From an uncultured Candidatus Saccharibacteria bacterium (GTDB taxonomy: Bacteria; Patescibacteriota; Saccharimonadia; Saccharimonadales; CAYLGV01), in assembly GCA_964394925.1 (NCBI GenBank), contig CAYMZG010000004.1, forward strand, positions 31,208 to 95,207: a DNA stretch of 64,000 nt. Reading direction: 5' to 3'. A program made the translations under genes and the position numbers. Below, in pieces: positions 48,370 through 51,445 of this stretch. Below the pieces are notes generated by a model. That model was not told where the DNA came from, made no database searches, and saw only the letters and a program-made list of their open reading frames with translations. Numbering within the stretch: the stretch's first letter is position 1; each line of letters begins with the position of its first letter.

Positions 48370-49851
48370 CTATTTCTTAACCTTTGCTGTTTTACTTGCG
48401 TTTTTGGCGTCTGACTTAGCGGCTTTGTCATCGGTCTTTTTGTCGGCTTTGGCGTCTTTTTCAGTAGCGGTTACCTCAGCGATATCACCCTTCATGTAGA
48501 ATGCTGACTCTGGTAGGTCATCGTGCTTACCATCGAGTATCTCGCGGAAACCGGCAATTGTGTCACTCAGAGAAACGTACTTACCAGGGTGACCTGTGTA
48601 GGCTTCGGCCACAAAGAATGGCTGTGTGAGGAAACGCTGGATACGACGGGCGCGCGCAACGGTTTGCTTGTCGTCATCCGACAATTCTTCCATACCAAGG
48701 ATGGCAATAATATCCTGGAGGTCCTTGTAGCGCTGAAGTACGCGCTGCACTTCACGGGCAACTTCGTAGTGTTCTTCGCCAACAATTTCGGGGTCCAGAA
48801 TAGTAGAACTTGAGTCAAGTGGATCAACCGCAGGGTACAAACCAAGCTCGGTCAAAGCACGGTTCAGCACAATGGTTGAGTCAAGGTGAGCAAAGGTCGT
48901 AGCTGGGGCAGGGTCGGTAATGTCGTCGGCGGGCACGAAGACGGCTTGCACCGATGTAATAGAACCCTTACGAGTCGACGTAATACGCTCCTGCAACTGG
49001 CCCATTTCTTGCGCCAGGTTTGGCTGGTAGCCCACAGCGGATGGCAAGCGACCAAGCAGAGCGGACACCTCGGCACCAGCCTGCGTAAAGCGGAAGATGT
49101 TATCGACGAACAACAGCACGTCTGAGCCTTTATCGCGGAAACCCTCGGCAATCGTCAGGCCCGACAAAGCCACGCGGAGACGCGCCCCAGGAGGTTCGTT
49201 CATTTGACCAAACACCAGTGAGGTCTTCTCGAGCACACCCGAATCCGCCATTTCGTTATACAGGTCATTACCTTCACGGGTACGCTCACCAACACCAGCA
49301 AACACCGAGTAGCCACTGTGGAATTTAGCAATGTTGTTGATCAACTCCTGGATCAGCACCGTTTTACCCACACCAGCACCACCAAACAGACCAACCTTAC
49401 CCCCCTTGGTGATAGGTGCAATCAGGTCGATAACCTTAATGCCAGTTTCGAGGATTTCAACATTACCAGACTGTTCAACGAGGGCAGGTGGCTCGCGGTG
49501 AATCGGCGCTTTCTCGGTAAACGTGCCACCCTTTTGGTCGATTGGCTCACCGGTCACGTTAAACATGCGACCTAGCGTGTCTTCGCCAATGGGCACACTA
49601 ATAGCGGCACCTGTATCTTTTACCTCAGAACCGCGCTGCAGGCCGTCGGTTGAACCAAGCGCAATCGCACGCACTGCAGATTCGCTCAAGTGCTGCGCGA
49701 CTTCGAGCACTAATTCTTGACCATCGTGTTCTACGGTTAGGGCGTTGTAGATTGCAGGGAGGTGATCCTTGCTAAACTCTACGTCTACGACCACACCAAC
49801 TACCTGACTGATCGTGCCTTTTACTTTCGTTTTTTCTGCGGTTGCTGCCAT
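48370..49851 (-). CDS. atpD: F1 ATP synthase subunit beta (with ~30-aa K/A/D-rich C-terminal tail)
   Basis: Walker [27 protein letters not shown]. Confidence 0.97.
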
Positions 49852-50144
49852 TATTGTTCCTTTCCTAGCTCTTCTAAATATTCATGAAATTCACCGGCGC
49901 CTGCCGTGAACAATTCTGCCTCATATGTTAACTGGCGAACTTTTTGCTCATCAGTAAAACCATCATAGTAACGACGGCTACCTTCTTCGAAGCCGACGTA
50001 AACGAGATGGTGTGCAATTTCAGTAAAACGTCGGCGCTGTTCATCCGTCAACCCCTCAATGAATGACTGTATGCCAGCCTGTTGGTCAAGCTCCAACTGT
50101 GCACGGTAGCCGGTTATGCCCTCATTTGGGATACTGTAAGACAT
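49851..50144 (-). CDS. Unknown 97-aa acidic protein embedded between atpG and atpD
   Basis: Its TAA stop overlaps the atpD ATG (TAATG). AAGGGG lies upstream of its ATG. No motif recognised. Confidence 0.55.
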
Positions 50145-50262
50145 TATGCTTTAACCCCTTGTGCAATAAGTACGTCTAGTGGTATGCGTTGCACTTCATC
50201 GACGTTGCCATGATCTCTATCATGCAAGAAAACAGCCGTAGGATAAAGGCTGACGGGCCGAC

Positions 50263-51132
50263 TCATTTGATTGCCTCCGCGCCGCCCGTGATTTCGGCTA
50301 GTTCTTGTGTGATAGCCGCCTGGCGGGCAGTGTTAAATTCTAGGGTCAAATCATCAATAATATCCGAGGCGTTGTCGCTGGCGTTCTTCATGGCCATCAT
50401 ACGCATAGAGTGCTCGCTGGCGAGTGACTCAAGCAGAGCTTGCCACACCTGCACCTCAAGCAAACGCTCGGTTACATTGTCGAGAACGGCCTGAATTGAT
50501 GGCTCAAAGGTAGTGTTGCTTAAGGCGTTCTCGGCCTCTTCGGTATCTTCAAACTTAGCAGGGAGCAGGCTCAACGCGTTGGCGGTTTGCACCAGGTTCG
50601 ATTTGAACTGCGTATAGAGCACTTGCACGTTGTCGACTTGTTTGTCGCTGTACATTTGTACCAAGGTGTTCAAAATTGGACGAATATCATTGGCGTCAGG
50701 GTGGTCCTGGAAATCCGTATAGGCAGCGACTAAGTCAACGCCCTCGATGCGCCGGATAAACTTAGCGCCTTGCTTGCCGATGGCAATCACTTGCACCGCA
50801 ACGCCATCTTTTTGGTCTTGCAAAATAGCCCGTGTGAGCATGCGAATAATGTTGGCATTATAGGCACCTGCTAGCGAGCCGTTGCTCGTAATAACCACAT
50901 ACATCCGTCGCTTAACGGGGCGCGATACAAATAGTGGATGATCGTTTACCTCTGTTATTGCACTGAGGCGTGTCAACAGGGAATAGGCAAATTCACGATA
51001 GGTACGGCCCGAAACAGCGCGCTCAATAGCACGGCGCATCTTGCTCGCCGCTACCAACTCCATAGCCTTGGTAATCTGCCTCGTGTTCTTAACAGAGCCA
51101 ATGCGTCGCTTAAGGGTTATCGTGTTAGCCAT
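50263..51132 (-). CDS. atpG: F1 ATP synthase subunit gamma
   Basis: ATG at 51132 after AAGGAG. MANTITLKRRIGSVKNTRQITKAMELVAASKMRRA and C-terminal ITQELAEITGGAEA. Confidence 0.95.
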   Translation of the reverse strand: MANTITLKRRIGSVKNTRQITKAMELVAASKMRRAIERAVSGRTYREFAYSLLTRLSAITEVNDHPLFVSRPVKRRMYVVITSNGSLAGAYNANIIRMLTRAILQDQKDGVAVQVIAIGKQGAKFIRRIEGVDLVAAYTDFQDHPDANDIRPILNTLVQMYSDKQVDNVQVLYTQFKSNLVQTANALSLLPAKFEDTEEAENALSNTTFEPSIQAVLDNVTERLLEVQVWQALLESLASEHSMRMMAMKNASDNASDIIDDLTLEFNTARQAAITQELAEITGGAEAIK

Positions 51133-51445
51133 TACTAGCTCCTTGATTGATAGGCTTTTCGATGCCTGCCATTTGCCCATACATGTAGCCCATCAAAAAA
51201 ATCATATTTAGTCTGTCAGGTTCATCATGAACGCCAAATTCTGCTCCAAAATTAAGTTGGGCAAAGACTTCTCCTGGGCTGCCAATGATAGGCGTTGGTT
51301 GGTCTGCGAAACGTGGTAGGGTAGCAAATTGGCCAGTAGCAGTATCAAATTCATTTCCATTCGAAACGGACATGTAAGCAGCGTTTTGATACGCACGCTG
51401 TGCCCATTCAATATTCGGAAGTGGATTTGACATTCTCTTGCCCAT
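51125..51445 (-). CDS. Unknown ~106-aa protein embedded between atpA and atpG
   Basis: Starts 4 nt after the atpA stop. Its last codons contain the atpG RBS and ATG. No motif recognised. Confidence 0.5.
   Translation of the reverse strand: MGKRMSNPLPNIEWAQRAYQNAAYMSVSNGNEFDTATGQFATLPRFADQPTPIIGSPGEVFAQLNFGAEFGVHDEPDRLNMIFLMGYMYGQMAGIEKPINQGASNG

Follow-up and report, generated by a model that had tools for sequence, protein, structure and literature searches.

Among the operon segments of bacteria, one of the most conserved is the block of genes for the alpha, gamma, beta and epsilon subunits in the F1Fo ATP synthase (atp) operon. Here, we describe small genes that interrupt this block in a 64,000-nt stretch of DNA (the window) from an uncultured Candidatus Saccharibacteria bacterium of the order Saccharimonadales (contig CAYMZG010000004.1 of assembly GCA_964394925.1, positions 31,208 to 95,207; all positions below are counted from the first letter of the window). 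According to Pfam and NCBIfam, the minus strand carries an atp operon in the order atpI-like, a, c, b, delta, alpha, gamma, beta, epsilon. Three small open reading frames (ORFs) of no recognized subunit family lie between the genes of the F1 part: X in the junction between alpha and gamma, and Z and Y in tandem in the junction between gamma and beta. A preliminary description, made from the letters of the window, had given the same operon order with two unknown ORFs, X and Y, coupled inside the F1 core. The order and the two genes are borne out by the domain models and by the results reported below, but the count is not, since the supposed gap between atpG and Y is filled by Z.

All three ORFs are built into the coding chain of the operon without a break. 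The ATG of X stands 4 nt past the atpA TAA (51452-51450) and 10 nt downstream of a GGAG motif (51459-51456) in the 3' end of atpA. At the other end, the X TAA (51127-51125) falls inside the atpG start (ATGGCTAA), giving an overlap of 8 nt, and the atpG Shine-Dalgarno sequence AAGGAG (51144-51139) is contained in the last codons of X. The 118 nt between atpG and Y are coding as well: the ATG of Z overlaps the atpG stop (ATGA), 7 nt downstream of a GGAGG motif (50278-50274) within the 3' end of atpG, and the Z TAA overlaps the start of Y (TAATG). The terminal TAATG of Y is in turn shared with the start of atpD, and a Shine-Dalgarno-like motif for Y itself (AAGGGG) also lies in the 3' end of the preceding gene. 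From alpha to epsilon, the longest untranslated stretch is 4 nt; atpC begins 3 nt past atpD, and the slot between beta and epsilon is empty in this genome. Within 47500-56300, neither promoter-like nor terminator-like sites were found above shuffle expectation, and Rfam gave zero family matches. The sequence agrees with the preliminary description on the limits of X and Y, the 4-nt spacing of X from atpA, the atpG signals within the end of X, the TAATG shared by Y and atpD and the acidity of Y.

X and Y encode acidic proteins, with an isoelectric point (pI) of 4.7 and a grand average of hydropathy of -0.37 for X, and 4.6 and -0.76 for Y. In X, Y and Z alike, none of the other five frames scores as well for codon usage as the annotated one. 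When the gaps were shuffled, stop-free frames as long as that of X arose in 26 of 5000 trials, and as long as that of Y in 14 of 5000. The G+C content at third codon positions is 0.36 in X, 0.37 in Z and 0.42 in Y, versus 0.45-0.59 in the atp genes. The Z frame is likewise predicted, by an independent gene caller, on a Logan contig with this sequence (L090, 1-84). Z gave no match in PADLOC or PHROG, and it is the least certain of the three.

The family to which X belongs is very small. In 5.8 billion protein clusters, profile search included, only three members were found, all of them in the alpha-gamma slot, between atpA and atpG, with 100-106 aa and a GSPGEV motif. The first homologue (P0002) is 67% identical to X and is encoded on a 931-bp Logan contig (L001) directly after an atpA gene that is 97% identical; the second (P0004) is ∼32-34% identical and occupies the alpha-gamma position of L006. 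X and P0002 have the same length and no insertions or deletions over 106 codons, and their rates of nonsynonymous (dN) and synonymous (dS) substitution, 0.21 and 1.62, give a ratio (omega) of 0.13. For the adjoining atpA, omega is 0.011, and synonymous sites are saturated between the two contigs (dS 1.4-1.6). By these rates, X is a protein under constraint and changes at about ten times the rate of alpha. No match to X was found in Pfam, NCBIfam, PHROG or PADLOC, and a metagenome scan with the X family found no relatives. An AlphaFold2 model of X with its two homologues was unreliable (pLDDT 53).

Y belongs to a larger family. A word-indexed search with Y recovered only Y itself, but an exhaustive HMMER/phmmer search of 1.84 billion representatives gave 32 hits, namely Y, 29 other family members and two false positives (P0019 and P0026, long proteins with low-complexity GTDDQ repeats). 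The 30 representatives have 88-123 aa, and the 29 others align with Y end to end at 27-49% identity. They share the motif RF.E.AHHL..GFE.G..R, and in the alignment of the 30 clusters L32, R39, F40, G55 and R58, among other positions, are invariant or nearly so. The family hits of the exhaustive search were stand-alone proteins of ∼95 aa only.

The genomic context was inspected for ten members of the Y family: the window, L019, P0005, P0011, P0009, P0014, P0015, P0031, P0036 (the contigs L082-L089) and a JGI contig with P0006. All ten lie between atpG and atpD of atp operons of the Saccharimonadales type, so that every member with an examinable context is found in such an operon. In the nine contexts with enough upstream sequence, the gene is flanked by atpG and atpD and most often starts in the ATGA or GTGA that ends atpG. 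On the P0006 contig, it lies upstream of atpD with one ORF between them, and the 26-residue fragment upstream of it is unannotated. Other ORFs may share the slot with the Y-family gene, as in L084 (191 aa), L085 (161 and 62 aa), L089 (38 and 132 aa) and L088 (57 aa). Genomes that share the family motif have atpG genes of only 52-90% mutual identity. Although the N-terminus of Z bears a loose resemblance to the start of the Y homologue in L088, we rejected Z as a remnant of an older Y-type gene, since it scores -2.3 bits with the hidden Markov model of the Y family.

Known domains were not found above threshold in any of the 30 Y-family members with Pfam, and Y itself gave only sub-threshold noise (APOBEC4_like, E 0.044). 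Five of the 30 members, Y not among them, matched DUF7842 below its gathering threshold of 27 bits (best 18.2 bits, E 0.0044), with the two visible alignments in roughly the same register; we found no mention of DUF7842 in the literature. A search of all PDB chain sequences with the family profile gave unrelated proteins only (best E 0.34), matches to PHROG were scattered and weak, and a metagenome scan with a subset of the family found no relatives. The AlphaFold2 model of Y alone was unreliable (pLDDT 54), with an all-helical prediction at low confidence. As judged by exhaustive search, X and Y are taxonomically restricted (orphan) genes.

We compared X and Y with the proteins that might be expected in an atp operon. 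All eight core F-type subunits are accounted for by other genes of the operon, and neither X nor Y matches a Pfam or NCBIfam subunit model. X, Y and the 30 Y-family members gave no Pfam match to IF1, zeta (DUF1476) or AtpTheta, and X and Y gave none to F1 assembly chaperones of the Atp11/Atp12 type at E values up to 1. Membership among the membrane accessory proteins of the AtpI/AtpZ/AtpQ/AtpR type was rejected because X and Y are hydrophilic and acidic, and the ATPase_gene1 domain is in another gene of the operon. An anti-phage or phage-derived nature was likewise rejected, with no match in PADLOC and no relatives in IMG/VR. Finally, neither ORF supplies the missing N-terminal part of delta. 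With 133 aa, the delta subunit is short, as the preliminary description had it, and matches only positions 70-170 of the OSCP profile, lacking the N-terminal part of the usual alpha-binding domain. Neither X nor Y matches OSCP, and a short delta (129-134 aa) is common to all relatives examined, whatever their slots contain. In these comparisons, the short delta is a trait of the clade that is independent of slot content.

A survey of related operons placed X, Z and Y in a wider context. The best genomic relatives of the window atpG gave 80 species-representative loci, in which the atp genes were placed by tblastn and every junction was measured. All are metagenome-assembled genomes, overwhelmingly labelled Saccharibacteria/Saccharimonadales or unclassified, and three carry other labels. 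Counting a gap of at least 150 nt as an insert, we found inserts between alpha and gamma in 23 of 79 loci, between gamma and beta in 38 of 77 and between beta and epsilon in 19 of 71. In the remaining junctions, the counts were 0 of 49 (I-a), 2 of 67 (a-c), 0 of 67 (c-b), 1 of 69 (b-delta) and 0 of 70 (delta-alpha). The three hot junctions are bracketed by the four best-conserved atp genes: the median identity to the window is 76% for atpA, 83% for atpD, 60% for atpG and 61% for atpC, versus 37-54% for atpI, atpB, atpE, atpF and atpH. This conservation of the flanks could allow recombination between lineages to move slot content.

Nearly all the inserts are taken up by ORFs on the sense strand, which begin at or overlap the stop of the gene upstream and likewise end at or overlap the start of the next gene. 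Among the 71 inserts of 150-700 nt, a single sense-strand stop-free frame covers at least 90% of the gap in 64, and the same cover by a single frame is reached on the antisense strand in ten; in shuffled inserts, the longest stop-free frame takes up half of the gap on average. Most of the other seven inserts hold two tandem ORFs. Across the 118 slot ORFs, the median length is 97.5 aa and the median pI 4.64; 80% of the ORFs have a pI below 5.5, versus 38-50% of the other genes of the window. Clustering of the slot ORFs gave 14 small groups and 81 singletons. Twelve of the 14 occur in one slot only; the two that cross slots are a repeat element and a single weak match, the latter between the gamma-beta slot of L046 and the alpha-gamma slot of L053 (29.6 bits over 66 residues), which we rejected as a shared family. 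We also rejected the idea that slot families are diverged copies of one ancestor, as profile-profile comparison of 12 families gave probabilities below 3% throughout, at the sensitivity of that method. Of the ten largest, nine are without a Pfam domain and the tenth is a 23S_rRNA_IVP protein. In the gamma-beta slot, recurrent families include one of 155-165 aa ending in WAPDY..RF and another with an N-terminal HDI.YGDY-like motif (found in L008, L072 and L085, and in L015, L060 and L084). We found no literature description of ORFs between the F1 genes of Saccharibacteria. A missing domain match does not set the slot ORFs apart, as six of ten small ORFs tested elsewhere in the window also lack one in Pfam; their distinctive traits are position and coupling. 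By the same comparisons, X, Z and Y exemplify a hot spot of turnover in which dozens of small, unrelated ORFs are found.

The possibility that these ORFs are chance frames or annotation artefacts is hardly credible. It could appeal to the shortness of X and Y, to their lack of a known domain and to the 40 aa of Z. However, it is at odds with the shuffle results for X and Y, with their same-slot homologues under purifying selection and with the excess of sense-strand open frames throughout the clade. The chance reading is refuted for X and Y and may still hold for Z.

It is harder to set aside the possibility that the ORFs are translated spacers, kept open merely for the passage of ribosomes from one atp gene to the next, which would avoid polarity and preserve coupling, while the peptides would be functionless and some would serve as raw material for new genes. 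The finding that each insert is one continuous sense frame suggests that extra DNA is tolerated in the junctions only when ribosomes are carried across, and a spacer reading accounts for the presence of such frames with start and stop overlaps even in singletons. A case in point is L049, in which a ∼100-nt palindromic repeat, (GAGTCAC)n ... CTCGTGRCTC, is present in both the alpha-gamma and the beta-epsilon junctions (∼1291-1404 and 4162-4275), each copy being spanned by a 37-aa ORF that bridges the flanking genes. Moreover, Z has no homologue that we could find and a codon-usage score of 0.03, and one slot ORF compared between L031 and L045 has a dN of 0.95, equal to the dS of the flanking atpG (0.93). 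However, spacers free of constraint do not explain the omega of X and its freedom from insertions and deletions in spite of saturated synonymous sites, the specific motif kept by the Y family over such a range of genomes, or the omega of 0.10-0.34 in several other slot families for which dS is finite. We therefore consider the spacer explanation quite unlikely as a general account; it fits Z and some singletons better than X and Y. As far as substitution patterns go, X and the Y family are under purifying selection and evolve many times faster than the atp genes. The codon-level conservation that the preliminary description had asked for was thus found, as the omega of X and the conserved positions of the Y family.

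Conservation of position gave a divided answer. The Y family holds its place between atpG and atpD wherever it occurs, but X is missing from the nearest relatives. The closest relative found (L088), with atpG 90% and atpD 92% identical to those of the window, has neither X (its alpha-gamma gap is 5 nt) nor Z, and its Y homologue, followed by the unrelated 57-aa ORF, is only 25-27% identical to Y (dN 0.91). In L002-L004, whose atpG is 81-83% identical, the slots hold unrelated ORFs or nothing, and many relatives with otherwise identical operons have empty slots. Eight pairs of genomes have both gamma-beta slots occupied and atpG at least 85% identical; only two of these pairs share a detectable homologue. 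Within the Y family, pairwise identity is not correlated with that of atpG (Mantel r -0.08, p 0.6), and the least similar Y proteins are found in the closest genome pair; for an atpA piece of similar size, used as a control, there is such a correlation (Mantel r 0.77, p 0.0004). These comparisons point to replacement or exchange of slot content, or to the sorting of old paralogues, rather than to simple vertical descent.

On this evidence, X and Y are not fixed components of the operon. The preliminary description had suggested, among other roles, lineage-specific accessory subunits expressed in stoichiometric amounts with F1, and this suggestion is not supported. In its support, one may cite the tight translational coupling within the alpha-gamma-beta core and the short delta, which might need a partner. 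However, the closest relatives lack X, which has only the three family members mentioned. Of the 80 loci and the window taken together, only the window and L019 have a Y-family gene, which leaves 79 of the 80 related species without one. Many genomes with an otherwise identical operon have empty slots, and all relatives have the short delta whatever their slots contain. Fixed, lineage-defining and stoichiometric subunits of the Saccharibacteria F1Fo are highly improbable, and are essentially excluded by the comparative data.

The same turnover would suit hitch-hiking cargo. In such an account, X, Y and most slot ORFs would be accessory genes unrelated to ATP synthase, for instance for host interaction or conflict systems; the operon would give them strong constitutive expression and its conserved flanks would allow their recombinational spread, as for phage morons or hyperplastic regions. 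The high turnover with dozens of unrelated families, the low third-position G+C content, the independence of Y identity from flank identity and the abundance of small ORFs without a Pfam match elsewhere in the genome all agree with it. So do the 23S_rRNA_IVP (PF05635) genes in the beta-epsilon slot of two genomes (L062, 3963-4337; JGI contig of P0006, 2167-2574). A further case is the 3.8-kb insert between atpD and atpC of L030 (8309-12094), the only large insert seen, which has several long antisense ORFs and a sense-strand ORF of 231 aa that, reading by eye, we take to resemble a Crp/Fnr-type regulator. However, apart from the weak PHROG matches of the Y family, neither PADLOC nor PHROGs gave a match to X, Z, Y or the homologues tested; viral contigs (IMG/VR) contained no relatives, and neither flanking repeats nor recombinase genes were seen. 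Moreover, the Y family was never found outside the gamma-beta slot in the ten contexts and occurs only as stand-alone proteins. Overall, we regard cargo as rather unlikely.

The coordinates of the operon genes are collected in Table 1.

Table 1. Genes of the atp operon and the three junction ORFs in the window
Feature	Coordinates	Strand	Basis
atpI-like	55458-55087	-	PF09527, ATPase_gene1 domain
a subunit	55097-54225	-	Pfam/NCBIfam
c subunit	54198-53968	-	Pfam/NCBIfam
b subunit	53945-53412	-	Pfam/NCBIfam
delta (atpH), 133 aa	53405-53004	-	OSCP profile positions 70-170 only
alpha (atpA), 516 aa	53000-51450	-	Pfam ATP-synt_ab and ATP-synt_ab_C
X, 106 aa, alpha-gamma slot	51445-51125	-	sequence; same-slot homologues; dN/dS
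gamma (atpG), 289 aa	51132-50263	-	TIGR01146 end to end from residue 1
Z, 40 aa, first ORF of gamma-beta slot	50266-50144	-	sequence; independent gene caller
Y, 97 aa, second ORF of gamma-beta slot	50144-49851	-	sequence; exhaustive phmmer family
beta (atpD), 493 aa, K/A/D-rich tail	49851-48370	-	Pfam
epsilon (atpC), 143 aa	48366-47935	-	Pfam

The tail of beta, which the preliminary description had also pointed out correctly, consists of ∼30 residues rich in Lys, Ala and Asp (48370-48465, minus strand). Most relatives lack it, and tblastn matches to atpD end at about residue 460-465 in most of them. The tail occupies the place where a beta-epsilon slot ORF is found elsewhere, and could be a slot insert fused in frame to beta.

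Around the operon, we noted the following. A 227-aa ORF (55465-56148, minus strand), whose end lies 6 nt upstream of the atpI-like gene, is possibly transcribed together with the atp genes. Pfam gave no match to it; the protein has a single hydrophobic segment near the N-terminus and a region rich in His (HMHENVNHVIHVHDH). Downstream of the operon, a 341-aa gene (46407-47432, minus strand) has a precomputed match to CDCA (cadmium carbonic anhydrase repeat, PF18484) in the Logan annotation of L090. On the opposite strand, a 116-aa ORF (47613-47963, plus strand) without a Pfam match overlaps the 3' end of atpC by 29 nt, and was called as a gene on the Logan contig (L090, 2265-2615). Finally, a preprint reports that ATP-synthase genes consistently co-localize with a new pilus (pam) operon in CPR bacteria (bioRxiv 10.64898/2026.03.03.709456). 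This co-localization has no bearing on X and Y.

Several known systems resemble parts of what we describe. The small F1 inhibitors, mitochondrial IF1, alphaproteobacterial zeta (DUF1476) and cyanobacterial AtpTheta, are largely helical proteins of ∼50-105 aa, each restricted to a single lineage, that evolved independently several times as regulators of F1 hydrolysis. X and Y are similar to them in size, and Y, with its ∼97 aa, also in its all-helical prediction at low confidence. However, no sequence relationship was detected by Pfam scans or by comparison of the Y-family profile with PDB chains, X and Y are patchy in distribution with a quick turnover, and their binding to F1 is only putative. 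To our knowledge, the known F1 inhibitors are each conserved in their own lineage, and their genes do not lie between those for alpha, gamma and beta. Extra genes of atp operons are also well known, such as atpI/uncI, atpZ, and atpQ and atpR of N-type ATPases. X and Y resemble them as non-core ORFs that would be co-transcribed with ATP-synthase genes, and the operon of the window has an atpI-like gene of its own. However, atpI, atpZ, atpQ and atpR encode conserved small membrane proteins and lie upstream of or beside the Fo genes, whereas X and Y, both hydrophilic, are encoded between F1 genes and lack conservation.

At the level of the genome, the closest analogues are the hyperplastic regions of phages (morons) and, in bacterial chromosomes, the integration hot spots flanked by core genes, in which diverse small genes occupy a few fixed positions. 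As in these systems, the slot genes are mostly of no known family, turn over quickly and have a history that does not match that of their flanks. However, these slots belong to a housekeeping operon, and their genes are joined to the translational chain of the host genes and have no promoter or terminator signal of their own; mobility genes and viral relatives were not found. A further comparison is with orphan or de novo genes and with palindromic inserts in frame, such as the Rickettsia palindromic elements. Like orphan or de novo genes, the slot ORFs are short and acidic, with a low third-position G+C content, weak codon adaptation and no homologue beyond a narrow clade, and the L049 repeat is translated through in two junctions as in Rickettsia palindromic elements. 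However, the spread of the Y family over genomes with divergent atpG together with its conserved motif, and the purifying selection on X, indicate that X and Y are not freshly born sequences.

Taken together, our favoured reading, held as a whole (the role in F1 included) tentatively and with slightly more doubt than belief, is that X, Z and Y are real but dispensable small acidic cytoplasmic proteins occupying two of three hypervariable F1 junction slots that are found across Saccharimonadales. The translation of X, Z and Y would be coupled, so that they would be produced along with alpha, gamma and beta. New DNA would be tolerated at the junctions only where a single open frame leads ribosomes from the stop of one gene to the start of the next, and this requirement would keep every insert open. 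Slot content would be swapped or replaced between lineages, with recombination between the strongly conserved flanking genes (atpA, atpG and atpD) as the probable mechanism. Of this evolutionary and expression picture of the slots, we are fairly confident. As to function, we favour for Y, and less surely for X, a non-essential modulator or helper of F1, such as a regulator of hydrolysis or an aid to assembly, and not a structural subunit, over any other single role; this part of the reading we put forward with greater reserve, as plausible but somewhat less likely than not.

Several observations weigh against the favoured reading. The translation of the slot proteins is predicted from sequence and their contact with F1 is putative, and the AlphaFold2 models, being unreliable for X and Y alike, lend no structural support to F1 binding. 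The restriction of the inserts to F1 junctions fits at least two explanations, proteins acting on F1 or conserved flanks that allow recombination, and the position specificity of the families is a trivial consequence of inheritance in place and thus no proof of a functional link. It is unlikely that more than 80 unrelated families are all F1 ligands. Some slot genes come from a family known in unrelated contexts (23S_rRNA_IVP), and one beta-epsilon insert, that of L030, spans 3.8 kb and has a regulator-like ORF. The codon-usage score of Z is weak and no homologue of it was found. Finally, synonymous sites are saturated between all genomes at hand (dS above 1.4), so that fast vertical divergence and allelic exchange are not cleanly separable.

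A bolder version of the favoured reading, which we judge very unlikely, is that the slots form a diversifying locus shuffled by recombination, whose small acidic proteins would bind the head or rotor of F1 and tune or protect ATP synthase, as analogues of IF1, zeta and AtpTheta that have arisen many times. The driver might be the unusual energetics of episymbionts, or conflict with host or phage factors that target ATP synthase.

Accessory-gene slots of this kind are known elsewhere; what is new is their presence, as hypervariable slots, inside the F1 core of the atp operon, together with two new protein families, the position-specific Y family and the very small X family. If the slot ORFs proved to be unrelated cargo or translated spacers, the result would still be useful as a modest description of an insertion hot spot. 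If the diversifying-locus reading were true, they would be a new class of regulators, embedded in an operon and evolving rapidly, that act on a core bioenergetic machine. For annotation, the lesson is that operon membership and tight coupling alone do not make a subunit. Across an order of episymbionts, three F1 junctions hold dozens of unrelated, fast-evolving and translationally coupled small proteins, and the families of X and Y, with at least ten further slot families, are candidate modulators of ATP synthase. The energy metabolism of Saccharimonadales is poorly understood, and some members of the order can now be cultured and genetically manipulated. The slots would offer a natural system for studying the birth or exchange of genes inside an essential operon without a break in its translational coupling.

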